From Octopus vulgaris (taxonomy: Eukaryota), in the NCBI GenBank assembly GCA_951406725.2, contig OX597824.1, positions 98,208,001 through 98,272,000 on the forward strand: a stretch of 64,000 bases of DNA. The letters are read 5' to 3'. Numbering within the stretch: the stretch's first letter is position 1; every line of letters begins with the position of its first letter. Made by a program: the position numbers and the translations under genes. The notes below the pieces were generated by a model. It saw nothing but the letters and a program-made list of their open reading frames with translations, had not been told where the DNA came from and ran no database searches. Of this stretch, positions 5,309-62,945 are shown in pieces.

Positions 5309-6759
5309 GCATTGGAACGTTGACAAGTTGCCAGGTTTTCAGGAAGTATTGTCCTCAATTTCTGTGTCATCAAGTTGAATATTATTATGTAAATCAAATC
5401 AAATAAACAGCAACAAACCTTATGAGACACACAGACATACGAGAGAGGGAGAGAGAGAGAGAAAGAGAGAGTGTGAGTGAGAGAGCAAGAGAGAGAGAAA
5501 GACTCACAGACAGACAACCATTCCTGTTGACTCTTCCTACAAATGATAAAAACCAAAACTTAACAATTCCTTTATATTACCTCTGCAGTCTTCTTTTCCA
5601 CATTTTCATCTTGTTGTTGTTCTTCCAAACTTTTCTCCTCCTCCTCCTCCTCCTTAACAGTTTCATCCGTCTGCTCTTCTCTTTTCTCTTCCACACATTT
5701 TCCCTCTTCTTCCTTCGGCTTCGTTGCATTTCCTCCCAGTCCTTCTTCCCCCCCTGTTTTCGCTTCGTCTCCGTCCCCTCCCTTCTCCGCATCAACCCAT
5801 TTTGTCTTGTACGTCCCATACAACCAGTCAATGCTCTCCTCTATAACAACTTCTCTTTGCTTACTCTCCGCATCTCCCCGTTCCAACAATTTCTCGTCCA
5901 GTTTCTTCTGAATCTTCTTTGCCTCACTTTTTTGCCGAATCTTCAACAGAGCTACAAACAGACAGCGGAAACACAACACAGTTTATTACTCGTTACAGCA
6001 ACACACGGTGACACCTGTGCTACACACACACTACACACACACTCACACACTCACTACAAATAATGCTCAAAGTATTCAAGAGTAGAAAAATATGGTTATA
6101 TAAAATTTTAGGAGTTTCTAAAGAAGATCGTATGCCGAGGAGAGAAATTGGATTCTTTGGGTCTCTCACCCTTCATCTCATTTTAGCCACATTAACAGCT
6201 CTCTACAACAAAGGCCACCACTGATTTCTATGTACAGAATTGTTTAATTCACATACACACACAAACACACACACACACAGATACACACACACACATTCAC
6301 ACACAGATACATACATATATACGTATATACATACATATACACACACACATTCATCTATCCCGATCTTGGCAAGATTTGAACTAAGAATGAAAGGAACCAA
6401 AAGAAATGCTGCTGAGCACTTTGTCTGATGCGATAACGATTTTGAGGATTAAAAAATAAAAGTAACAATTTCTTTTATTTGCCACCAGGGCAACACACGA
6501 GGAGAACAATATAAAAACAAAATAGTTTACAGCAAATGTTGGGTAAAAAAAAGCACAATAATGATAATAATAATAATAATAACATGCAGAAAATAGCACA
6601 ACTAGGCACTGCACACATCCTACATAAAACACTTTCACTACATTGAAAATAAGAGCACCACAACAAACCACAGAACATACCCAAGGCACACACAAATGTG
6701 CTCAATAGTGCAGTGAAAGCACATGATAAAAATAAGACTACCAAATAATAATAATAATG

Positions 6760-7345: not shown

Positions 7346-10220
7346 GCAATACTCAACCAACCATCCACACTGTCTTGAATTCGTTTGTTTTCTTTATCAA
7401 TCCAAATCTGTCGTTCTATCTTCTCTGCTTCTATTCCACCTCTGGCCCTGTCATAGAAACAACAGCAATAACAACAACATTCTTCACATTTACTTCGTCA
7501 TGGTACAGGCCATGCTACAACAGCTGTACCACCATCACAAATACATTCTGATTGTGTGTGTAGGTTTCTTGTGGCATCAGTAAACTTTGCAGTGTTAGTG
7601 CAGTGTTGAATAAGTGTTAATGTAGTGCCAACCGTAATACAATTGTGGAGAGAATCTCTATTTTCAGTCATGGCACAGTGCCACAGAAATGCTTTGAACA
7701 CAGCATTGCATTCATCAGTCTGATGAGGGTGGCACCATCTATAATACTCAACGAGCTGTACAACCTCATGGTACCTATTTACAGCTAGCTGAATTGAGCC
7801 ATTGAGAATTAAGTATCAGTGCAGTGATAGGAAAAGAATCCATCGATGGGTCTCGCTGTGTCAGTCAATTCCTTGGTAATTGTTCTCTTATTTATTCTGA
7901 CAGCCTCTGATGCCGAGATACACTGACACAACTACCACAGCAAATCTGCCACTGGACCTGGTCAGTGAGCGTCAACTGGTCAGATATATCGTTCATAACA
8001 CAGTCAAGAGTAAAAGGACAATGATTTGTTGACCTTTTCAGGTCATCTTAGACTCTTGTCCAAACAAGAAGGAATACTATTTATAATGCTATATATGCTG
8101 TGTATAGATGGACATATGGATGTATATACAGTTGTGTCTTTATAGTGAATAAACATACACACACACACACACACACGTATATATACATATATAACACCAA
8201 GTAAGATAGGGGTTATGGGTGCAACCCACTAAGGGATAATATCTATCCAATATACTGTTGGTATAATACCCAAATTATTAATACACAAGTGTTTTTAATT
8301 GCAATGCAATTAACTTATTTATTGTATTAAATGGGTGAAGGTAAAGAAATATTTTACCATTAATTTATAATACAAATAAGGAAATGCAGAAACAATTTAG
8401 TTGGTTAATCAACTTTTTCTTATTTGTATTATATACATATATATATACACACACACACACACATATTATATCTTCGAGTGTGTATAAAAAGTTGTGCTGA
8501 TGTCTGAAATACCTACCATGCTTCAGAGCAGGCACGGTCTCGAGGGAAAACCGGTCGATCATCCAAATACTTCAGGCTTTTCTGCCAAAATTCAGTTTAT
8601 AAACGTTACTTTGGATATCTAATCAAGAACTATTGACTATTAATTAAAAATCAATTTACGAATGCAATTACTGGCATGAAGCAAAATAATTAAGTATTTA
8701 TGTCATCAAGTGGGGAATTAATCAGAGTATGACAATAACGAGAAAAAAGTGAGTGACAGAAAGATTGCACCACCACCATACCACCACCACCACCATCAAT
8801 ACCACCACCAGCACCACCATCATCATCAACACCCCCACCCCCACCACCACCACTAGCACCACCATCATCATCAACACCCCCACCACCACCACTACTACCA
8901 AAACCAAAATACAAGGGAAAGGTTTTTTATGAAAATGGAAACTAGAATCTTCATCCCTATAATTCTTCATTCTTGACCAAGGATGCAGACAAATTATAAA
9001 GGCTTAAAACCATTTCATTTTACTACATACGGTAATATACCCCCATGATTTTAATCCTTAAATGTCTTCTTATGGGAATCCCCTACTCTAGGGTAATGTT
9101 AGCTCTTCCATACTCTACTATAATACAAATTCAAATCTGGTTTCATCAGAAGGCAGTATGGAGGACAGGTTTCAGTGTTATTAGACCTCTTTTCCTACTT
9201 GCCCCGTTACTAATCTGGTGCAGGAGTCAAAACATGGAAAAGAAAATGGAATTAGTTCTAATGAAAAAATCCTGAGATGCTTTCCATCGTGGGTTTGTTT
9301 AATCAGGACTGACCGAGGGCTAAACAACAGCAACAACAAGATCATTTACATCAGTTGTTTTAATCTATTTGGGTGCCATTACTGGTACGGCATGTTCTAG
9401 GTGTGAGGGGCTGGATGGGGCCAGTCTGAACATAAAACAAGGAGAATATCTGGGTCCAGATGGGGCTGGTTTAGAGGCTGAATGGTTGTGCATACACACA
9501 TACACATACTCACACACATAGGCACACAAACACATTCAGACACAAACATGCACATATTATCTGCACTCATATAAAACACACACACACACACACACTTTCA
9601 AGTCAAACAGCTAGAATTAATGTCTCTCGCTTACAATTGCCACGGTAACATGTTTCCTGTAATTCTTGATGTTTCTGATAACAGGATTCCCAATCAAATA
9701 CAAAACTCCCTGAAAAAAAAAAACAAGAAATAACAGTTACACATATTATACAACAGACAAGGGGAAAAGAATGGAATATCTTGTCTAACATCTCTCTGAA
9801 ACACAAGCACACATCTATTAAATAGCTGCTGCAGCTGGGTCATATTTATTTATGTAATTATTTCTATAATATTTTATGCAATAAAACATCAAAGCACAGA
9901 AACAGTTGTTGCGATTTGTGATTAAAGCCTATTCATTCCATCTTCTTGATTTATAAATTTATATATATATATATATATATGAATAAAAAATGGAGTTATC
10001 ACAGGTTTAAACAAGAATATGCTGTACCAGTAAAAATACTTGTTTAAACCTGCGTTAACTCCATTTTTTATTCATATTATTCAAAATATTCAACGTAAAC
10101 ACGAAGTTTCAACCTTTATAAACAAGGAGTTACAACATCTTTACTTGTGAGATTTTTGCTGCCCTGGTAACTATTTATTTATTTTTCCGTGTTAATTGTT
10201 AACAAGGTAAAAATACACTC

Positions 10221-10277
<57 letters not shown>

Positions 10278-10757
10278 TAATAAAAGGCTTCCAAATAAGG
10301 AAGCGTAGTGCTAGAAACACAAAAAGGATAAATTCATGAAAGGAATGAGAATTAAAAACATTTACCATCTCAGCTATATCCCAGACCGAACGGTTTCTGT
10401 GTGTTTGCTAAAAATAGGTAGAAACCGTTCGGTCTGGGATAGAGCTGAGATGGTAAATGTTTTTAAGTTTCATTCCTTTCATGAATTTATCCCTTTTTGT
10501 GTTTCTAGCACTACGCTTCCTTATTTGGAAGCCTTTTATTATATTTCTTTAAGAAAAATATATAGTCTAATGACTAATTCGTCTTTTGTGCTAGGCCACT
10601 GGTAATAATAATTTATTTTATTACCCTATTTGATTATATTTATATATATATATATATAACCAAAAAGGAAAAATTCAATTGTCACTCACTGTGATTGAGG
10701 GTGCTGAGTAGCACCTATATTGCTTTCTATCTATCTGTCTGTCTCTCTCTCTCTCTC

Positions 10758-10803
<46 letters not shown>

Positions 10804-13800
10804 TATATATTATCCAAAATATAAACATCAACTACAACAATGGTGATAGGAAGAAGAAGAACTACGAACCAAGGCAGGCATTTTGGCAAAGACTTCTTCG
10901 ACAATTTCTGGTTGTTCAAGTCTGTTATGAGAAAGATCCAACACTGAAATGGACGGACAGTCTTTGAGGTGGATTACAGATTTCAGAGTGGATAGTTTGT
11001 TGTGGGTTATCTGGAGGGTGCTCAGCTGGGGTAAGCAGGCTGCAACGAGAGACAAAAAATGAAAAAACAGTTGAGAATTATAATTATAATTTCAAAGTAT
11101 ATTTGATTCGATCTGAATATGTTTATAATTATATATAGAGGGTGAGCCAAAAGCCACAAAGCCTGACTGCATATTGTGATCTGTGGCCAGAATCTGATGG
11201 CTTCATCCGTTGCAACCATACAAAATGCACCAATTCCATTTTTAATCTCTGTGACTTTTGGCCCTGCACATCTCGTAGATAATTCAACAGGAATATTTTC
11301 AAGGATAACTTGATAATGTTTTTATACCTTATATCTGAATGCTATTTACAGAAAGAACCAATCTCCAATTCCACTATTTTTGGAACATTTTCACCAGATT
11401 CTATTATTTTTGAAGAATCTTCAACAGCTTCTGCTGTCTTTGAACAATCCCCAACATCTTCCACTGTCCTTGGAATATCTTCAACAGCTTCCACAGACAC
11501 TAAAGTCCACACTCAAAAGACTCTACTCAAGTCACACTCTTCAATTTCCATATTTTCATATTACAACAGACTCCACTCAAATAACTCACTCAAATTTCCA
11601 AAGAAAGCCATTAACCTCTACTCAAACTCCACTCATGTCAGGCACTCCACATTTCCATACCCTAATTCATGAGTAGGTGATACAGTACATAACATCAGTG
11701 CAAAGGGGTCAGTACACAACCTGACCCCTTTCAAGTCTCTACTTCATTATTTCCTATGCAGCTTCACTCCCTTATAATTTGACCCCGACAAAGTGTGATT
11801 ACTGATACATTGGTAACATGTTGGCAGGGTTTCAAATAGTTTCCTTTCCCCCAAGATAAAACCAGCTGACTTTTTATATTTTCCCAAAGCCATAATAAGC
11901 AATCTGCCCTTCATACCAATTCCCAAGAGAGAAACACGGAACCTGCAACTCACACAAATTCTCAATGGTTTCAATCATGTTGTGGCAAAGGTTTAAATTG
12001 GACAATTTATGCATCGATTCCAAGTTTTCAATCTTGTAGATGAGATTCTGCTGCAGATAGAGGCACTTCATTTCGACCTGACGGTCAAGGTTCTCAATCC
12101 TGTTCAGTCCATTATTTTCTAACCAAAGACACTTCAGGCCAACATATTCTTCAAGATTCTCAATTTTATAAATACCTGCACAAAAGAAGAAACCCCAGAC
12201 ACAGAAATGAGAGAAATACAAAACAAAAACAAAAAAACAATTTGAAACAGAAAACACCAACCAACCAACCAAATAACTGACAGCCAAACCCCAAATCTCA
12301 CAGTTGCCAAGCAACCATGTTACTAATTAATTAAAACATTCACATCATTAATTCCTTTACAACAATTAGAAATGTAAACAATTCTACAATTAATTCTGTT
12401 CAACAACATGTAATTGTTGTTGTTGTTGTTGTTTAGCCCTGGGTCAGTCCTTGCACACAAAAATGCTTCAGTCCTGACTGTCAAGTCTTTTATTGTGGAT
12501 CTGAAACTTATCCAATATGCCCTTCCTTTTTAAGATGGCAGAATGGGGGAGGTTTAGCTGTTATTTCTAGTAGGTCAAGCTGTCCTGGCTGGTTGGACAA
12601 TCCGTCATGTGACCACCACATCAGTTTCACAGCCAGACCCTCAAGTGTGCAGCATCTTCCACCCTGTTAAGGTGTGATGGATCCAGCTGCCCACTAGAGA
12701 CACCTATAGGCCAACAGTTAGAGCCAAATTGGACCAACCACCCTACGGGAAGCACCAAAGGGCCAGGTGGATTATGAGGCCTACAATCCTGCTAAAAGCA
12801 CCCAGGGTATTCAAAGTGAATCAACATCAGAAGACCTTTATCTCAAACGTAGGAACCTCTTGCTCTCCTACCAACATCAACCGAAACGTACTCACCTTTG
12901 AAGTGTAGGTAAAGGACATCGTTTAGCTCAGGGGTTTGATACAGTTTGTGCTCCTTGCAGTGTTGGCGGAGGAATTTCTTGGTCAGTCTGTGGGGTAACA
13001 GAATGGTGCAAACTAATATAACAGGGTATAGTGGGCAGTAATATCACCATCATCATCATCACCACCACCACCACCACCACCACCACCACCACCACCACCA
13101 CCACCACCATCACCACCATCAACATCATCATCACCACCACCACCACCACCACCACCACCACTGCCACCACCATCACCACCATCAACATCATCATCACCAC
13201 CACCACTGCCACCACCACCACCACCATCACCACCATCAACATCACCACCACCACCACCACCACCACCACCACCACCACCACCATCACCACCATCAACATC
13301 ATCATCACCACCACCACCACCACCACCACCACCACCACCACCACTGCCACCACCATCACCATCATCAACATCATCATCAACACTACCACCATCATCATTA
13401 TCATCAACTCCATCATCACCATCATCATCATCATCATCATCATCATCACATAAAGTCTGCCTTCCATGTTGGCATGGGTTGGACGGTTCGACAGGATCCA
13501 ATAATGAGCCACACAGAACCCTCATGCTTCCGGGTCTGCTTTGGCTTAGTTTCTATGGATGGATTCCCTTCCAGATGCCAACCATTTTGCAGAGAGTTCT
13601 GAGTGATTTCCCCCACCCTATGTACCCCACCATTAATGAGGTCGCTCAGTAACTTGCAGGACAAAACCCTAAAGCTGAAAAGGAAAGAGGGAGGGAGGTG
13701 GCTTTGTGGTGAGTGTTGAAAGGTCAAAGTATGACAGAGGGACAGGCACAGGCATGTTGCTAGGGAAGAGATGCCTGGCAACTACACCACCAGCACCACA

Positions 13801-16800
13801 GTCGTTCTGAGTTCAAATTCCGCCAAGGTCGACTTTGCCTTTCATCCTTTCGGGGTCAATAAATTAAGTACCAGTTACGCACTAGGGTCGATATAATCTA
13901 CTTAATCCCTTTGTCTGTCCTTGTTTGTCCCCTCTGTGTTTAGCCCCTTCTGGGTAGTAAAGAAATAAGTATATTATATATAAGGGTGGCAAAGGGATGT
14001 CAGAGCCTATTCTCTTATACCCAAAAAGGTGAGTCTGTGGAAGGGCGGGTGGATGAGTTTATAGGAGCAGAAAGAGGAGAGAGGTGGGTGGGGGAGGGTG
14101 GTAATGCAGGGGAGGCTGAACAAGGGTGGAGGTGGTAATTATCAGTAGGGGAGAGGAAGATGAAAGATGTAGGGTGGCAAAGAACATTACAATCAAAAGT
14201 GTGTATATGTATATGAGGGAGTGTGTATGTGTGTGTGTGTGCATGTGTTGTAATTATGAACGTGTCTTACCTTGGCCAGTGGTCATCCAGTTTTTCAAAA
14301 GCAGATTTCTCATGTGGTGGTTCTTCTTTCTTTTCTTTCTTACATTCTCCATCAGAAACTACACCAATGAACACCACATCACAGTTATATCCTCATCAAT
14401 GGTCATTGACATCACAACCTACAGTTATACAGTTCTAACTCTACCGATTCCCCAGCATCTGATGATCCGGTTCCTCTTTTAATCTTGTGTTGACACTTAA
14501 ATTTCCCATGTCCTTTATTAATAACATATTGTGTTACAAAAGCTTCATAAAACACATTTGTTGATTCCCTCATAACACATTGCGAAGGTGGAGGAAATAT
14601 TCTTCTTCCATATAAATTTGATAAAAACACCACATGCTAAGCCCCTAATAACTCTTTCTGTGAGGAATACAGTGTCCCAGTATGAAAAAGGGAAAGCTAA
14701 ATATAAGCCCTTCACAGTTATGCTTCAAGAAAAGGGAACAGTGGGGCGCCTAACAGTTAGGAGGTTCACACTTGGTAATCGATTTGGTTTTAAATATTGA
14801 CACCATTCGGTTATTAGAATTGGAAGAAATGTTTCCAACTTTATCAAATGTTTCTAACGAATAAACAAAGGTGTGTCATGAAGGTTTATTAACAAAAAGA
14901 CAATTGATGACAACAGCAGTCTTTTGGGGAATTTCCATCATGTGGCTTCTCTTTGTTGAAGCAAATTAGATGATCCAGCATGGGCATGGAACCAAGGGAA
15001 ACCAGAAAATTGGTGGTGTATTTCTACCATCAATATTCAATAACATCACAACATGCTGCTACATCACAGTTATACCAAAACAAGCCAGATCTGACCAACT
15101 CTCCTGTGTCACCAGTAAGCTCTTGTCCTGGAGGAATTTGGTAAAAGTAACGCGTTGCCCTCAACATCAACAAAGATTTTGGCTATAGCATGCAAGTCTA
15201 TTAAAAATGTCCTGCTTAAGGGCTGTATCTGTCTCCCATTCTGTCAGATAGCAAAACTCTCCATGTGTATTGGTGGAACTCTTTCTGTCCCTCATTCTAT
15301 CAACTGAGGTCTCCACCAGGGTCCACTTTCACCCCCACCCCATTCTCTTTCTTTTCTAGCACAATTATATCACTGGCTACTTCTCCTCCCCAGCACACAC
15401 GCTGGGCCCATACTCTCTCCATTCAGGCATCTCTGTTCCACTTGCCACTCCTTCTCCTCCCATCTCACTTGTTGTGTTCATCTCGACACCTCCCACCCAC
15501 CCACCAGACCCTGCACTAATCACAAATGCCAGTCCTTCTTCCCACCATGTCATCCCCCTGGAATTCCCTCCTTGCTCATGTCTCTCTCTTCTGCAAAGGT
15601 TGACTTACAAACCTTAATGGCATCTCATTGGTCTTGCAAGGCTACAGGTGCTCCCACTTCCTCCAGACCCAACAATAACAAAAAATCCATGCTATCCCAA
15701 CAGCACAACATAAGAGTTATACCATCAACATTCAATGACATTACAACATTAAGGAACTTAGCCAGACACACATCAACATCCAAAGTTAAATCTGCTAGGA
15801 GGAACTAACTAAAAATGGAATAATTACCATTATCTTTTGCACTGTCTTTCTGTTTTCCATCCAGACCATTTGTAGTCACTGTCTCAGATTCCAATGTCTT
15901 TGAACTATCTGCAGCATCTTCTACTATTTTTGGAACATCTTCAGCAGATTCTGCTAGTTTTGAAGAATCTTCAACAGTTTCTGCTGCCTTTGAAATATCT
16001 CCAACATCTTCCACACTTTTTGAAACATCTCCAACATTTTCTTCTGTCTTTGAAATATCTTCAACAGCTTCCACTTTATTTGAAATATGTTCAATAACTT
16101 CCAGTGTCTTTGAACCGTCACCAACAGATTCCACTGACTTTGGACAATCATCCACAAATTCCACTGTCTTGGAACAATCCTCAGTAGATTCCACTTTCTT
16201 CAAAAATTCTCCAGTAGATTCCTCTGTCTTTGAACTGTCTGCAGCAGATATGACTACATTTGAAAAAACTTTAACATCTTCCAATATCTTTGGACAATCT
16301 TCAACAGATTCCACTGTCTCTGAACAAACTCCAGTAGATTCCAATATCTCTGGACAACTTCCAACAGCTTCCAATATTTTTGTACAATCTCCAACAGCTT
16401 CCACAGTCTTTGAACAAACTCCAGTAGATTCAACTGTCTTCAGAGATTCTTCAATAGATTCCACTGTTATTGAAACATCTTCAGCAGATACAACAGTGTT
16501 TGAACAATCTTTAGCATCTTCCAATGTCTTGGAACAATCTCCAACAGATTCCATTGTCTCTGGACAATCTCCAACATCTTCCAATATCTTTGGACAATCC
16601 CCAACAGATTCCATTGTCTCTGGACAATCTCCAACACCTTCCAATATCTTTGGACAATTCCCAACAGGTTCAATTATCTTTGAACAATTTCCAACAAATT
16701 CTACTGGGTCTGGAGAATCTTCCATGGTTTCCACTGTGTTTGAACAATCTCCAGCAGATGCAACCAAGTTTGAACAATCTTTAGCCTTTTCTATTGTCTT

Positions 16801-18335
16801 GGAACAATCTCCAACAGCTTCCACTATTTCTGGACAATCTCCAATATCTTCTCCTGTCTTTGAAATATCTCCAACAGTTTCCACTGTCTTTGGACAATCC
16901 CCAATGGTTCCCACTGCTTCTGGACAATCTTCAGTAGATTCCAATGTCTTTGAGCAATCTCCAGCAAATTCACTCTGATTGGTGGTTCCATCTGAAATAA
17001 ATTTGAATGTTTAAGTACATACGTGTCTGTAAGTGAATAATAAATACCAAGAGAAAGAAAGAAACAGAGAAAGGCAGAGACAGACAGACAAGCGGACAGA
17101 CGGACAGAAAGAGGGAAAGAGAGAGAAAGAGCAACTTCATATCAATGGTATAAACCAGTGGTTTCCAACCTTTTCACAGTGGTTCCCAACCATTATATTT
17201 AAATGTGTTTTCCCATGGACCCCTTTTAATATGCTTATCCTGGCCTCCGTGCCGGTGGCACGTAAAAAGCACCATCCGATCGTGGCCGTTTGCCAGCCTC
17301 ATCTGGCACCTGTGCCGGTGGCACGTAAAAAGCACCCACTACACTCACGGAGTGGTTGGCGTTAGGAAGGGCATCCAGCTGTAGAAACACTGCCAGATCA
17401 GACTGGAGCCTGGTGCAGCCTTCTGGCTTCCCAGACCCTAGTTGAACTGTCCAACCCATACTAGCATGGAAAGCGGACGCTAAATGATGATGATGATGAT
17501 GATGATATATGAAATTTTGAATTTAGTTCACGGAACCCCCTCCCCCCAGTACTACCTTTGCAGACCACCAGGGTTCCGTGGACCCTAGGCTGGGAGCCAC
17601 TAAACAAAGAACACTGGAAATCACTGGAATCAATTGGAGATCAAAATAACTTTAATATCTTCTGAGAGTAAAAGACAGAATGAGTTGGCAGAATGGTTGA
17701 CAAAATGCTTTGTTGCACTCCATTGGTCTTTATGCCTGGAGTTCAAGCTCTGCTGAGGTTGATTTGCCCTTCATCCTTTTGGGGTCGGTAAAATAAGTAC
17801 CAACTGAGCACCGGGGCCGATGTGATCGACTTCACCCTCCCCTCAAATTTACTGGCCTTGTGCCAAAATTTGAAACCAAAATCAGTTGAGAGTGAAGTAT
17901 TTAAATCTTTAATACAATACAGAGAAGGGTAGCGTCCAGTGGTACCTATTTACCACAGACACAGTCCAGTACCTGTCCCCACATGCAGCAATGACATTTT
18001 ACTCCTACATGGACCCTGTGTGGTACCATTAACAAGAATTGAATGCCAACTAAACAATCAAGAACAAACGTCATTAATTTAGAAATATCACAAACTCTGT
18101 AAATTTTGATTTTAAAAAACCATTTACCATTTCCTGTTTCAAGAACAGAATCTTCAGCAATTCCTGCTCCTGGTTTTATAGAAACTATGTTGTTAGCATC
18201 AGAATCGGATTGGCTGAGAGAATGGGACAGTTCTGTAGAGTTGTTGTTGTTGTTGTTGTGGGTGGTGGCACTGGTGTTGGTGTTGGTTGTAGCATTTGTG
18301 ACGTCATCAGCAGGTATTTTAATGGTGGTGGGCAT
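1..18335 (-). CDS. DNAAF1: Dynein axonemal assembly factor 1 (DNAAF1/LRRC50/ODA7), spliced CDS, 3'-partial. Exons: 18335-18128, 16991-15828, 14358-14271, 12987-12896, 12175-11954, 11039-10870, 9709-9635, 8581-8517, 7447-7362, 5951-5581, 4213-4081, 2606-2563, 1873-1796, 320-<1
   Basis: Joined exons give [60 protein letters not shown]22-type LRRs, then [58 protein letters not shown], the DNAAF1 signature. All 13 introns are GT-AG with matching phases. Confidence 0.93.
457..492 (-). ncRNA. Minimal type I hammerhead-like motif, variant core
   Basis: CTTT-CTGTTGA-A-GAGC ATAG GCTC-GAAA-CG-TA-AAAG; A6 replaced by U; inside a repeat (about 345-560) whose tail recurs at about 48367-48432. Confidence 0.55.
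837..1290 (+). mobile_element. Mariner transposon 5' fragment (HTH region, decayed)
   Basis: From ATG at 1029: [52 protein letters not shown]...[10 protein letters not shown]. Confidence 0.8.
1796..1873 (-). CDS. DNAAF1: DNAAF1 exon ([26 protein letters not shown])
   Basis: TTCCTTGTAG acceptor and GAG|GTAAGG donor; the PxLED motif resembles the DNAAF1 C-terminal region. Confidence 0.78.
2563..2606 (-). CDS. DNAAF1: DNAAF1 small exon ([15 protein letters not shown])
   Basis: TTCTACTCAG acceptor and GAG|GTGAGT donor; phase 1 to 0. Confidence 0.72.
4081..4213 (-). CDS. DNAAF1: DNAAF1 C-terminal exon
   Basis: [23 protein letters not shown]...TIFSST; TTTATAG acceptor and G|GTTGGA donor; phase 0 to 1. 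Confidence 0.7.
5581..5951 (-). CDS. DNAAF1: DNAAF1 coiled-coil/acidic exon
   Basis: [15 protein letters not shown]...IDWLYG...E-rich (ORF 5572..5979 frame); TTTGTAG acceptor and GAG|GTAATA donor. Confidence 0.88.
6570..6745 (+). mobile_element. 3' end of R4/Dong-like LINE between (TAA)n tracts
   Basis: [21 protein letters not shown] is the RLE C-terminal motif, followed by a 3' UTR and (TAA)n. Confidence 0.65.
7362..7447 (-). CDS. DNAAF1: DNAAF1 exon
   Basis: [28 protein letters not shown]; ACAG acceptor and G|GTTGGT donor. Confidence 0.9.
8517..8581 (-). CDS. DNAAF1: DNAAF1 LRRcap exon
   Basis: [22 protein letters not shown]; GCAG acceptor and GTAGGT donor. Confidence 0.93.
9635..9709 (-). 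CDS. DNAAF1: DNAAF1 LRR/LRRcap exon
   Basis: [25 protein letters not shown]; poly-T CAG acceptor and GTAAGC donor. Confidence 0.93.
9978..10230. repeat. (TA)n-flanked fold-back element
   Basis: GAATAAAAAATGGAGTTA..CAGGTTTAAACAAG and its reverse complement form arms of about 40 bp. Confidence 0.7.
10273..10640. mobile_element. (TA)n-flanked fold-back element with about 125-bp arms and a conserved tail (Penelope-like terminal fragment)
   Basis: Near-perfect inverted repeat 10273-10398 / 10420-10546 containing the hammerhead 3' half GAAACCGTTCGGTC; tail shared with 40560-40633. Confidence 0.7.
10870..11039 (-). CDS. DNAAF1: DNAAF1 LRR exon
   Basis: [16 protein letters not shown]...[26 protein letters not shown]; TTGCAG acceptor and GTTCGT donor. 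Confidence 0.93.
11360..11499 (-). repeat. Intronic short array (about 4-5 units) of the same 30-bp repeat
   Basis: Translates [42 protein letters not shown], like the distal units of the repeat exon. Confidence 0.8.
11954..12175 (-). CDS. DNAAF1: DNAAF1 LRR exon
   Basis: [29 protein letters not shown]...[11 protein letters not shown]; TGCAG acceptor and T|GTGAGT donor. Confidence 0.95.
12896..12987 (-). CDS. DNAAF1: DNAAF1 exon ([31 protein letters not shown])
   Basis: Highly conserved DNAAF1 pre-LRR motif; CACAG acceptor and G|GTGAGT donor. Confidence 0.95.
13045..13448. repeat. Compound (CAC)n/(CAT)n satellite with a higher-order unit
   Basis: Repeated (CAC)n-CATCACCACCATCAACATCATCAT blocks inside a DNAAF1 intron. 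Confidence 0.9.
13803..13967 (+). mobile_element. tRNA-derived SINE 3' part (family also at about 17682-17880, 32718-32930, 52350-52581 minus, 62968-63180)
   Basis: Recurrent GTTCAAATTCCGCC.AGGTCGACTTTGCCTTTCATCCTTTCGGGGTC core with a B-box. Confidence 0.8.
14271..14358 (-). CDS. DNAAF1: DNAAF1 exon ([30 protein letters not shown])
   Basis: TAG acceptor and AG|GTAAGA donor; supplies the phase 1 to phase 2 bridge and the conserved PR before LTKKFL. Confidence 0.85.
15828..16991 (-). CDS. DNAAF1: DNAAF1 large repeat exon (388 codons, 36 x 10-aa repeats)
   Basis: TTTCAG acceptor at 16992 and G|GTAATT donor at 15827; phase 1-1; open throughout (ORF 15805..16944 frame). Confidence 0.75.
15886..16965 (-). 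repeat. 30-bp coding minisatellite, 36 units (consensus approx. VGDCSKTVES)
   Basis: Exact 10-aa register with no indels; Cys at unit position 4 in 21 of 36 units. Confidence 0.9.
17156..17601. mobile_element. hAT-type MITE interrupted by an RTE-tail-like repeat (17235-17505)
   Basis: Ends CAGTGGTTTCCAACC and GGCTGGGAGCCACT; the insert ends AGCATGGAAAGCGGACGCTAAA(TGA)n. Confidence 0.6.
18128..18335 (-). CDS. DNAAF1: DNAAF1 first coding exon (MPTTIKIP...ETGN)
   Basis: Pyrimidine tract plus CAG acceptor directly before the ATG at 18335; G|GTAAAT donor, phase 1; open low-complexity frame. Confidence 0.75.
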
Positions 18336-18394
18336 CTGAAGAGAAAGAAAAAAAACAGATAAAAGTCTGTCATCATATACATACATATATATAT

Positions 18395-18870
18395 ATCATC
18401 ATCATCATTTAACATCCATTTTCCATGCTGGCATGGGTTGGACGGTTTAACTGAGGATTGGTGAGCCAGAAGGCTGCACCAGGCTCCAATCTGATCTGGC
18501 AAAGTTTCTACAGCTGGATGCCCTTCCTAATGCCAGCCACTCTGAGAGTGCTGGTAAGGCGATGGTAATGTGCCAGTAAGGCGACGGTAATGTGCCGGTA
18601 AGGCGACGCTGGCAATGATCATGGTCAAATGGTGCTTTTTATGTGCCACTGGCACAGGAGCCAATCCGTGGCCCTGGCAACAATCACACTCGGATGTGCT
18701 TTTAACATTCCACTGGCATGAGTGCCAATCAGGCGGTACTGTCATCGGCCATGTCAACGATTTTGATTTCATTTCACTTGCGTCGGTAGGTCTTTGCAAG
18801 CAAAGTTTATTGTCCAATGAATGAGGGGTATTCATAAGTGGGTTGGTTACACCGACTGGCATAGGCCACG
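18395..18870 (-). mobile_element. SINE/LINE 3' tail repeat ending in (TGA)n (related copies about 4380-4800 and 13450-13620)
   Basis: CATCATCATTTAACATCCATTTTCCATGCTGGCATGGGTTGGACGG, recurring in the window. Confidence 0.7.
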
Positions 18871-18882
18871 GACTATGATCTC

Positions 18883-18915
<33 letters not shown>

Positions 18916-18920
18916 CACAC

Positions 18921-18958
<38 letters not shown>

Positions 18959-20400
18959 CTAAAAGAAGTTGAGAGTACATTTGGGGTTTTAGAAAAACAT
19001 ATTTACATATACTTAACCAGGGAACCAGTTTCACCGTTTCAGGACTTTCAAAAGTAGTGCAAGATGATGGGACTGGGGGCTGGGCTATATAATTTGTCTT
19101 GATTCTGACAAGAGTTTTGAAAATTTGCTCGGTGTGATTAGGGTTCCAATTGCCATCAGTTGAAGTACAGTTGAGTTGGTTGAAGTTGGACAAGGGGTCA
19201 GAGGGTCATGTGACAATGTGAATGTTAATTACATCAAAAGTTCAGTCTGTATTGGTGCAGTGAATGTGTCATGTGAGAGCAGGGATAACAATGGCCTGTC
19301 ATGTTCGAGTATTAAGTCAAGTGGTAGAATTAAGTCAGTACTTGCTTTGAAACTGGAAGGCTGTGTTAATCCATGGAATGGTGTCATGTGATGATTGGAT
19401 TAACAACAGGTTGTCAGAAGAGCTAAAAGTTGAGAAACAGATTCCTTGTTTGTTTGTGAGCTAAGCATGAAATGCAGGGATGCAACTGGAATATTTCAAG
19501 GCCTCCTACCCACTCCTCCTATGCCAACATCATCATCCCCTACTGCCTGATCTATCATCCCCAAGTCCCTCTTATCTTTCTCACCTTACCCCACCACCCA
19601 CTCATACTGACATCTCCCCTCCACTCCTGTCCTTCACCCCTAACCATCTGGTACTCATCCCCCACACTCATATAAAATGTCCCCCACCCACCCATTGCTT
19701 CCTGAGGTTTTGCTCTGGCACCTCATCACTGATATCTTACCTTTCCCCAGATACTCCCACCCACCTTTATATAAGTACAGGGCAGCCATGTATCTTCTCC
19801 CGTAGCAAGAGACATGTCCCTAGCATAAAGTCACCTTTCCACCCTCTCAAATCCAGCCACCTCCCCCACCACCCCTTAGCTAAGAAGGTTTTTTTTCTCC
19901 TTTCCCCTTTTGTTTTTCTTTCCTGCCTTGAAAGTTACTTGGCAACCCCACCAGTGCCAGGGCTTGAAAAACACACCTACTCCACTCTGTAACGAGATTG
20001 GGATTAGGTAGAGCAGCCAGTTGTAGGAACCATGCCACAGCAGGCACTGGAGCATGATCGGCCCCTGACGCTCATCGGGTCCTGTCAAACCATCCAACCC
20101 ATGCCAGCACGGGAAACGTACGCTAAATGAAAATGAAACATATACATATATATTTATGCATTTATACGTACGCAGGTTTAAATACCCACTTATGAACATA
20201 GACACAAACATAGATACATACGTATATATGTATGTATATGCATGTACATATGTATGTATGTGTGTGTGCATGCATGCATGTACGTATGTATGTATATGCA
20301 TGTACATATGTATGTGTGTGCATGTATGTATGTATGTATGTATGCATGCATGTATGCATGTATCTATGTATGTATGTATGTATGTATGTATGTATGTCTT

Positions 20401-20434
<34 letters not shown>

Positions 20435-20997
20435 TGTATGTATGTATGTATGTATGTATGTATGCATGTATGCATGTATCTATGTATGTATGTATGTATG
20501 TATGTATGTATGTATGTATGTATGTATAGTAATAAATATATGTGTATGTAAATTCCATATTTGTGTGTGTGTGTGTCCGTACGTGCGTGCGTGCGTGTGT
20601 GTCTGATGTTTGATAGTGACAGAAAGCCTCCAATTCCATTGGACGGAGGGCAGAGAGGGGACTGTAGGGGGGGGGGCGTCGAAATTGCCCTTTTTCCACT
20701 CCTCGCCGCATTATAATTATACCAGTTCGTTGGAGCAAACCAAGAAAGGGGAAGTGAACCAAGTCAATATTTGAACCCCGAACGCTATTAGCAAAACAGC
20801 AGAGATTTGAGAAGAGAATTAAAACAATATGAAAGTGTGAGAAGAAAACACCGAGAGTTTAAAAGTTGATAGAAATAAATAAAATGTGAGACGAGAGAGA
20901 GAGAGAGAAAAGAGAGGGAGAGAGAGGGAGAGAAAGAGAGAGAGAGAGAGCGAGTGAGAGATGATGATGTGGAGACAAAACAGTCGAGTCTTCTTAC

Positions 20998-21040
20998 CTT
21001 GTTAGAAAACAAGCGTCTGGTAGGGTGTCATAGCAACGGG
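20998..21040 (-). other. DNAAF1: Putative non-coding first exon of DNAAF1 (5' limit uncertain)
   Basis: AAG|GTAAGA donor at 20997 next to an X-box; splicing to 18335 gives AACAAG-ATG. Confidence 0.55.
21025..21037 (-). promoter_or_regulatory. RFX X-box motif (GTTGCTATGACAC)
   Basis: Close to the X-box consensus GTTNCYATRGNAAC and located at the predicted 5' end of a motile-cilia gene. Confidence 0.65.
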
Positions 21041-21529
21041 GTGAGTGGAAAATGTGGAAGTGGCTTCCGTTAGTGAAACGAACCAATTAAATTTCTCGCT
21101 TTGAACGCTGGTTTTTGAATGGAATGGAATGGAACACCTGAAGAACAGAAAAGGTAAAAGAACAGCAAGGAGGCCTGTACGTGGTTCTGCAGACTACTAG
21201 AAACTGCAGCTAAATATCCCTCAAATAATGTCGGCTTGCTCAGATTGGGTTTATTTTTGTTTACATTTCTGTTTCAGGTATGACCGTGGTATCGAAATAA
21301 ATAACGACCTCCACTACAAAACGGAACGGACTTCATAGAAACGACATTCCTGGGTCCTCGAATGTCTACAAAACTTGTAAACTACGATGTATTATTATTT
21401 ATAAAATATCCAATTAAATTTAGTCAGTTTAATTAGTCGTAGTAATCACAGGTTCCCTCATTATCTAGAATCACTGAATGTTTACAAAAATTCTAATGTG
21501 TGCTGGTCTTCGCTTTTATTATTATTATT

Positions 21530-21940
21530 TTTTACTTGTTTCAGTCATTTGGACTGCGGCCATACTGGAGCACCGCCTTGAAGAAATCTGGTCGAACAAA
21601 TCGACCCCGGACTTATTATTTATTTTAAAAGCCTGGTACTTATTCTATTAGTCTGTTTGGCTGAACCGCTAAGTTACAGAGGCATAAACACATCAATACT
21701 GGTTGTCAAGCGGCAGTGAACACACACACACACACGCACACACACACGCACATGCACACACACACACATACACACACACACACGCACAATAGGCTTCTTT
21801 CCGTTTCCGTCTACCAAATCCCCTCAGTAGGCTTTGCTCGGCCTGGGTTATAGCAGAAGACACTTGCCCCAGGTGCCATGCAGTAATTCTGAACCCGGAG
21901 CCATGCGGTTGCAAAGGAAACTCCTCACCACACAACCATG
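21530..21940 (-). mobile_element. SINE with internal (CA)n (related copies about 28690-29040, 29980-30200, 45100-45290)
   Basis: TTTTACTTGTTTCAGTCATTTGGACTGCGGCCAT.CTGGAGCACCGCC terminus recurs. Confidence 0.75.
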
Positions 21941-21957
21941 CTTAGTAATTAACTCAC

Positions 21958-22245
21958 TATGGCCTGGTGGTTAGAATATAGCGGACTCGTGGTCGAGGGA
22001 TTGCAGGTTCGAATCTCAGACCGGGCGATGTATGTTTTTTATGAGCGAAACACCTAAGCTCTATGTGGATCCGGCAGAAGGTAATGGCGAACTTCTGCTG
22101 ACTCTTTCGCCACAACTTTCTCTCACTCTTTCCTCCTGCATCTTGCAGCTCACCTGCGACGGACCGGCGTCCCGTCCAGGTGAGGAACCTATACGCCAAG
22201 GAAACCGGGAAACCGGCCCTTATGAGCCAGGCATGGCTCGAGAAG
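21958..22245 (+). mobile_element. tRNA-derived SINE
   Basis: A-box TGGCCTGGTGG and B-box GGTTCGAATC head followed by a non-tRNA body. Confidence 0.7.
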
Positions 22246-41312: not shown

Positions 41313-41950
41313 TGTTGTAGTGAAAATGTTACGCTCCTTCTTCCCACGTGACAAAGCGGTATGGCCCAGCCAGCCACTATAAAATCAGACAGTCAGTCGT
41401 TGTAAGAGATCAGTAGTAGTAGAGTCGTTGCACGAGTTTCTCAGTTGGAGTCAGAGTCGGTTACGTGGCACATACGTGTTCGAGTTACAGTCAAGGTAGA
41501 CCTCAGAAGTCGGCGTCTCGCGGAGCTAGAAGCGATAGCACGATAAATAGAATGAGATGCGGAATAGCCCCACAACATGGTTGTGGTGACAAGAATATTA
41601 CAGTGCCGTTGACAACATACAAATGGACGGACGATGATCCACATTATAACAGTGGCGACGAGAATATAAAAAAATTCACGCGGACTACGTTGAAACAAAA
41701 ACAAGATGTAAACTTATCTTCAACATGCAACGGCGAACTGATTCATGGCCAAAGGGTAGCGATACCTGAGACTCTACAAAAAAAAATGTTGGAAGAATTC
41801 CATATTGGATATTCAACGATCGTAAGGATGAAAGCGCTTATGCGCAGTTATGTGTATTGGACGAAGATGGAGAAGGAAGTAGAACATGTAGTAAAAACAG
41901 CGGCCAATGAGGACGCCAGATGCATTTTGGCCATTTGGCCTTACCAGTGA
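41313..41950 (+). mobile_element. Gypsy LTR retrotransposon remnant: 5' LTR, PBS and integrase zinc-finger fragment
   Basis: TGTTGTAGTG...CATTATAACA LTR (41313-41651); PBS TGGCGACGAGAAT (41653-41665); RVAIPETLQKKMLEEFHIGYSTIVRMKALMRSYVYW. Confidence 0.82.
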
Positions 41951-56672: not shown

Positions 56673-57008
<336 letters not shown>

Positions 57009-62159: not shown

Positions 62160-62945
62160 GTTGTTTGACTTTTGCTTTGCATTTGTACAAGTTGGCTCCA
62201 AGTCTCACCCAGAGACCACAAGAGACAACAAGTTAGAAGTTCGTGATGTTGTTATGCCTAGGGTGCTATATATTTAATTTTGTACATAGTGTTGTTCTAG
62301 AGAATGTTTAAGAAACCATAAGAAAATTATGTGTTTGTTTTAAAATTTTAGATTACATAGAAAGTATTTTGCGTAGGATATGGCCAGTTCCCATGAGCAC
62401 TATCTTTTGAATTTCTGCCATTTTCAGGTTTCCCGATATCTGAGCTAGGTAGCAATCAGCCCCTTTTGCTAGCATTCTCAGGGCACCTATGACAACAGGT
62501 ATTGTTCTAGTTTTCAGGTTCCATATTTTGCTAATTTCTATTTCAAGATCTTTATATTTGCTCAGTTTTTTGGTAGGTCTTGACAGATACGTTTATATCG
62601 ATTGGGACAGTCATATCAATGAGGAAGCATGATTTTTATCTGAAGTCTTTCAATATGATGTCTGGCCTATTTGCATCTATCTTTCTATCAGTTTGAATGG
62701 GGAAGTTCCAGAAGAGTGAGATGTGGTCATTTTCAAGCACTGGAGATGGTTTGTGTTCCCACCAGTTTTTTTCATGGGGCAAGTCCAGGCTTTTGCAAAT
62801 TACCCAGTGAATATATTGTGCAGCTCTATCATGCCTGTTGCAAGAAAACTGCACATGGAGTCAACAAGATCAATCGTTTCATTTTGTTGTTGACATACAC
62901 GACATATTGGGAAGCTGCCGTTCTTTAATATGTTGGCCTGGTAGT
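62160..62945 (-). mobile_element. Second R4/Dong-clade LINE 3' fragment, close copy of 31565-32360
   Basis: RHDRAAQYIHWVICK...IQTDRKIDANRPDIILKDFR; the 3' end abuts (CAA)n. Confidence 0.88.

Follow-up and report, generated by a model that had tools for sequence, protein, structure and literature searches.

The second coding exon of the octopus DNAAF1 gene carries 36 tandem units of 30 nt, and we regard it as probably a coding minisatellite, likely spliced in and likely encoding, before the leucine-rich repeat (LRR) core, an acidic spacer that is for the most part unstructured. Judging from the sequence, the exon is very probably spliced in at least sometimes, and its closest counterpart, in O. 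bimaculoides, keeps both its junctions and its frame.

Gene Model and Repeat Array

In the window (the whole 64,000-nt stretch of Octopus vulgaris DNA that was analyzed), 15 coding exons joined at AG/GT boundaries run on the minus strand from 18335 to the window edge, giving 1,060 codons with 0 stops. The sequence-only reading had named this gene DNAAF1, and both the Pfam LRR_4 match and the best relatives support the name: most of the animal proteins that match the core, at 52–69% identity and with E values as low as 1e-114, bear that name. As in DNAAF1/LRRC50/ODA7 elsewhere, an SDS22-like LRR core lies between acidic flanks and the frame is intact; the human protein has the same layout, with 6 LRRs, a coiled coil and a biased tail (PMC5886296, in excerpt). 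The features of the gene are the following (identities are to the O. bimaculoides model).

Exon 1: 18128..18335, minus strand; translation begins at 18335, phase 1 at the exon end; 59/69 residues identical
Exon 2 (model): 15828..16991, minus strand; 1,164 nt, 388 codons, phase 1-1; 332/368 aligned residues identical (90.2%)
Exon 2 array: 15892..16971, minus strand; 36 units of 30 nt; one column has all 21 Cys
Exon 3: 14271..14358, minus strand; entered in phase 1
Exon 4: 12896..12987, minus strand; conserved DNAAF1 core starts; 30/30 residues identical
Exon 5: 11954..12175, minus strand; leucine-rich repeats, Pfam LRR_4 E 4.1e-08
Intron 5 repeat copy: 11372..11491, minus strand; four units in the same orientation as the array, open frame
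Exons 6–9: 11039-10870, 9709-9635, 8581-8517 and 7447-7362, minus strand; remaining core
Exons 10–15: 5951-5581, 4213-4081, 3365-3300, 2606-2563, 1873-1796 and 320 to the window edge (3), minus strand; acidic C-terminal flank, gene extends past the window

Core exons 4–9 share 227/236 residues with the O. bimaculoides model. The fastest-changing exon is exon 10 (5581-5951, minus strand), with 91/123 residues identical (74%).

Exon 2 is preceded by AG and followed by GT, and its coding frame is free of stops, with 12 and 21 in the remaining two minus-strand frames. The 36 units (16971-15892) follow one another with no indel between them, after a 20-nt head and before a 64-nt non-repeat tail, so that the exact ten-residue register that had been described over 36 units is borne out; TRF reports a period of 30, 33.8 copies and a score of 302. 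As in exonic VNTRs, the unit exceeds 6 bp and is divisible by three. A majority decapeptide can be written for the units, and all 21 Cys of the exon fall into a single column, position 4 in the VGDC register, with 10 in units 1–12, 9 in units 13–24 and 2 in units 25–36, which confirms the earlier observation of a Cys column fading toward the C-terminal end. Heavy substitution among the units had also been noted, and indeed they lie on average 6.2/30 nt from the majority unit. The exon is phase 1-1, as claimed, and joining exon 1 directly to exon 3 leaves the frame intact. An antisense frame across the array is open as well (15824-16978, plus strand, 384 codons), because antisense stops would need Tyr, His or Gln codons on the sense strand, and exon 2 has three of these.

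Evidence for a Coding Exon

When proteins of 679–2000 aa were searched with exon 2, the one match was an NCBI model of O. bimaculoides, LOC106882542 (1,298 aa); among 1.84 billion representatives the exon found 112 matches at E up to 0.001, and only LOC106882542 reached 1e-30. That model is itself a gene prediction, and in it the residues at the exon 2 junctions are the same on both sides. Its exon 2 has 7 aa more at one place and 20 aa fewer at another, both in frame, so that the species differ in copy number, O. bimaculoides having two fewer units and an additional partial one of 7 aa; this insertion disrupts the ten-residue register. The sequence-only reading had reported neither stops nor indels: the absence of stops stands, and the absence of indels holds for this genome and fails in O. 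bimaculoides. Since the O. bimaculoides model has the same junctions, 90% identity and in-frame indels, exon 2 is probably genuine coding sequence, as had been proposed.

Along a spanning tree of the units there are 176 nucleotide steps, of which 3.8% would be expected to be nonsense, and the complete lack of stops has a P of 0.001 at 176 steps and of 0.03 at 88 steps. A column-shuffle test shows nothing about stops, because 2,396 of 5,000 shuffles were also stop-free. GAAGA and GGAGA, which are purine-rich splicing-enhancer signals, reach 25.8 per kb in exon 2, and the introns on either side have 0.9 and 7.5 per kb. GC at third positions is 0.20 in exon 2 vs 0.49 in the core.

Substitution in the Repeat

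The substitutions among units look neutral, as far as the sequence comparison goes. On spanning-tree edges with one change per codon, 29/112 changes are synonymous vs a neutral expectation of 0.27 (P 0.92), and replacements within the array have a mean BLOSUM score of -0.43 vs -0.40 under neutrality (n = 83). Between the species, exon 2 replacements score -0.25 vs -0.39 (n = 36, P 0.32), and those in the core score 0.89 vs -0.33 (n = 9, P 0.02). A pairwise dN/dS of 1.40 among units was not accepted as a sign of positive selection, the pairs being non-independent and the spanning-tree count neutral.

Variability is uneven among the columns of the unit (variance/mean 2.25). The Cys column, with Cys in 21/36 units, is about as changeable as the average column (16.1 changes, 17.9 expected). 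The steadiest column is that of Glu, with 6.7 changes for the same expectation (P 0.003, uncorrected for the ten columns), a result compatible with selection either for charge or for purine-rich splicing signals. Identity to O. bimaculoides is higher in exon 2 (90.2%) than in the remaining flank exons (84.3%; P 0.015), but leaving out exon 10 raises the latter to 88.4% (268/303) and almost removes the difference. All 19 aligned Cys are kept between the two species, for which the chance at 90% identity is about 0.14.

Composition and Structure

Exon 2 contains 24% D+E, 8% K+R and 5 aromatics, and with a hydropathy of 0.459, just below the boundary of 0.469, it is borderline on charge-hydropathy; units 19–36 lie just on the ordered side. 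AlphaFold2 run on the single sequence gave loose helices with a mean pLDDT of 47.7 and a pTM of 0.25, with 43/387 residues at pLDDT 70–90, these being helical, and six stacked blocks gave a pLDDT of 33.9 and no secondary structure; with inputs of 1 and 6 rows, low confidence is not equivalent to disorder, and both runs are weak tests of the structure that the sequence-only reading had proposed to predict.

Pfam PF25296 (Decapeptide repeat) does not match exon 2 at E up to 1. The sole match in a PDB search is the decapeptide region of IcmE/DotG (whole-sequence E 1.5e-4; best stretch i-Evalue 0.22), which likewise has a period of 10, with its Gly, Pro/Ser and Leu/Val columns in register with the octopus unit; unlike the octopus unit, it has a Phe column, which falls on Asp in 27/36 octopus units. 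Two ESM Atlas searches gave best scores of 0.86 and 0.84, to be taken as leads only. Rfam has 0 matches over 10000-22000. Six weak Pfam matches on exon 2 (the strongest being COG2p_C, E 5e-06, in which no stretch passed) were set aside as repeat-summed noise.

The matches outside DNAAF1 that were scanned (the next 15 and one later) carry RhoGAP, FN3, MBT, QSOX, TPR-CHAT, H-lectin, PF25296 or no domain. In 7/9 non-DNAAF1 repeat matches examined, the strongest period is a multiple of ten and the units are different. Controls with permuted columns reached the real score in 2, 2, 0 and 1 of 60 trials for four top-match targets, the figure being 2/60 for each of the two unnamed matches that carry PF25296. 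Homology to these repeat proteins was not accepted, since permuted columns matched the scores and the targets had been preselected as top matches.

DNAAF1 Orthologs and Other Flank Arrays

A search with the core gave 430 matches of 713–2272 aa and 1,518 of 30–712 aa, and the best 120 of each were used; 213 named DNAAF1 proteins make up the ortholog set, with 27 unnamed matches left out. All counts that follow are of database entries, in which isoforms and close species are over-represented, one search being limited to long proteins. A profile of the octopus repeat matches 1 of the 213, that of O. bimaculoides. The octopus protein has about 485 residues before the core vs 71–145 in 19 other molluscs (median 98) and 85 in human; without exon 2 it would have about 97. 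In cuttlefish, the only other cephalopod genus sampled and represented by one model, there are 71 residues before the core and no repeat, and these results together support the earlier proposal of a lineage-restricted repeat of minisatellite origin. Neither the N-terminus of the cuttlefish protein nor the last part of octopus exon 1 gave a significant match to a possible precursor unit. The statement that N-termini are much shorter in other DNAAF1 proteins holds for the molluscs and human and is too broad for the family as a whole, in which 13/212 named orthologs have at least 400 aa before the core.

Tandem arrays of other kinds are found in the flanks of 44/212 named orthologs, 8 of them N-terminal and 36 C-terminal, and 0/424 shuffled flanks passed the same threshold. 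They span about 10–13 lineages and differ in their units, with the following unit lengths.

N-terminal, before the LRRs: catsharks 8-mer; salamanders 46-50-mer
C-terminal, vertebrates: primates 26; pike/salmonids 10; rockfish 10; conger 11
Other molluscs and insects: scallop 23 (C-terminal); two gastropods 52 and 56; leafhopper 36
Further fish: smelt 7; dragonet 16; sevengill shark 11

The arrays sampled from other species are all net acidic and on the disorder side (17/17), and 15/17 are without Cys. The N-flank is net negative in 182/186 named orthologs in which it is at least 40 aa long. Six NCBI isoform models of catshark differ in their N-flank by exact multiples of the 8-aa unit. Taken together, these comparisons of protein sequences suggest that DNAAF1 may have a special tendency toward flank arrays. 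Neither the octopus exon nor the recurrence of flank arrays was found in the open-licence literature; the term DNAAF1 is absent from the 6 supplement files of the O. maya testis paper (PMC6341066), and nothing on DNAAF1 was found in the excerpted text of PMC13663681.

A Second Repeat Copy and Other Features of the Window

The sequence-only reading would have been refuted by a repeat dispersed across the genome; within the 64 kb, to which this check applies, exon 2 is accompanied by one further significant multi-unit copy, the four units in intron 5. These resemble the array's final units, with nhmmer E values as low as 4e-15 and a blastn alignment of 118 nt with 16036-15919 at 84.7%, and are absent from the O. 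bimaculoides protein model. At one position the copy has Cys and the exon of both species Ile; at another the copy shares a Thr with O. bimaculoides. This pattern suggests that the copy may have split off before the two species did and that the C-terminal units of the array lost their Cys later. An AG (11501-11500) and two donors in frame could let it form a phase 1-1 cassette (11499-11395 or 11499-11350), although such a putative cassette would break into the LRRs. In intron 6, within 10224-10620, a long inverted duplication of about 150 nt can be seen by eye (10530-10400 vs the 10400-10270 region).

An RFX X-box-like 14-mer with 1 mismatch (21024-21037, minus strand) lies a short way ahead of 20998/20997, a likely 5' UTR donor. 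The pattern, which we take to be the RFX motif, has 10 matches in the window vs 6.6 expected and is without enrichment. Upstream of DNAAF1 and on the opposite strand, two open reading frames with an InaF motif (PF15018; 27394-27711, plus strand, E 4.7e-08, and 56673-57005, plus strand, E 5.4e-17) are apparently small paralogs. A retroelement relic with an integrase zinc-binding domain (PF17921, E 9e-08) is at 41423-41947, plus strand, and pieces of open reading frame near 62.4–62.9 kb (62356-62860, minus strand), which have no Pfam match, presumably resemble the end of a LINE.

Discussion

It is very unlikely that the segment is an intronic minisatellite, kept open by a property of its unit, that predictors in both species miscalled as an exon. 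The open antisense frame, the open intron 5 copy that is missing from the protein model, the neutral-looking amino-acid change and the low third-position GC would all agree with such a miscall; yet the frame is open through the non-repeat head and tail as far as the AG and GT, in phases that fit the neighboring exons and with conservation in two species, stop avoidance has a P of 0.03–0.001, there is no frameshifting indel across the 36 units or between species, and the 90% identity is not below that of the neighboring flank exons, while an open antisense frame is to be expected from so few Tyr, His and Gln sense codons. We also think it distinctly unlikely that the decapeptides fold as a solenoid (with a Cys ladder or with capped helices like those of DotG) or bind metal via Cys together with Asp/Glu, an idea of the sequence-only reading that the present results do not support. 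The exact register over 36 units, the 19/19 retained Cys, the columns shared with the IcmE/DotG repeat and the helical pLDDT of up to 74 near residues 51–125 speak for a fold of this kind. Cys-ladder solenoids such as insect antifreeze proteins have a conserved Cys column; that of octopus is unlike them, since it is no more than average in variability and is missing from 10 of the last 12 units. Metallothionein-type binders have close Cys pairs (CC, CxC, CxxC), whereas in exon 2 there are none of these, no two Cys are closer than ten residues and there is one His. Moreover, the replacement spectrum is neutral-looking, the O. bimaculoides insertion breaks the register, both folds are of low confidence, with no secondary structure in the stacked-unit one, Atlas scores reach at most 0.86, and the DotG likeness is set against its Phe column falling on Asp, its weak best stretch and the failure of PF25296 to match.

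That exon 2 is a regulated cassette, included for example in testis, in which the acidic segment tunes condensate behavior or the distance between DNAAF1 and RUVBL1/2 and IFT88, is a rather unlikely reading, although several features point toward it. The exon is phase-symmetric, its acceptor is among the weaker of the gene's 15 (12/20 pyrimidines, range 10–19), skipping it would leave an N-flank of mollusc size (about 97 vs a median of 98), and the six catshark isoforms vary in the same flank by multiples of 8 aa; furthermore, DNAAFs concentrate in liquid-like organelles (PMC7785291, PMC6349401, both in excerpt) and DNAAF1 binds RUVBL1/2 and IFT88 (PMC5886296, in excerpt). However, no octopus isoform lacking the exon (~920 aa) is among the best 120 of the 430 matches of 713–2272 aa, chance alone often yields one phase-symmetric exon (in this gene exons 5 and 12 are 1-1 too), and a term search of PMC6349401 gave no DNAAF1.

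The reading that we prefer is that of a coding minisatellite encoding a mostly unstructured acidic spacer. Slippage or unequal crossing-over would have multiplied one 30-nt unit in the octopus lineage, presumably after the cuttlefish split and before the split of the two octopus species; an intronic origin of the unit and an origin within an older, small exon are both compatible with the non-repeat head and tail. A large exon could have stayed open and been recognized because the unit length is a multiple of three and the sequence is rich in purines and GAAGA, and later selection may have purged stops and frameshifts and perhaps held the Glu column, with no such hold on Cys, the periodicity of which would be a legacy of the founding unit that is now decaying. 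DNAAF1 is needed for dynein-arm preassembly in human, zebrafish and Chlamydomonas (PMC12633730, PMC5886296, in excerpt), and the human LRRs have been modeled amid disordered regions (PMC12633730, in excerpt). If dynein assembly depends on the LRR core, the insert would merely extend an acidic flank that is found in the DNAAF1 of most animals, and the extension would be tolerated because function sits in the core.

In its frame-preserving unit, in filling one large exon and in a copy number that differs between species, the octopus array resembles exonic VNTRs such as those of MUC1 (60-bp), ACAN (57-bp) and FLG (PMC12776774, in excerpt). It differs from them in a divergence of about 30% among its units, a sign that the array is likely to be old and mostly no longer homogenized. 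Its host is presumably cytosolic, and we would not expect a role in glycosylation, unlike in exonic VNTRs. With the other DNAAF1 arrays it shares a restricted lineage, a net acidic character, a position in the flanks and a unit number that varies between close species or isoforms, although units and periods differ and most of the others are less hydrophobic as well as lacking Cys.

We consider it very improbable, though worth stating, that the DNAAF1 flanks form an acidic brush tuned in length and charge, which animals rebuilt more than 10 times out of unrelated minisatellites and of which octopus would have a switchable 388-residue version with periodic cysteines, splicing and redox state setting the entry of DNAAF1 into dynein-assembly condensates when long sperm flagella are made. 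The role of the disordered parts of dynein assembly factors is described as open (PMC12633730, in excerpt). Taken by itself, the octopus exon is another case of a coding minisatellite in a flank that tolerates it; the recurrence of acidic arrays in about 10–13 animal lineages, including primates, suggests that in these flanks of DNAAF1 it is charge and length that matter, not sequence.
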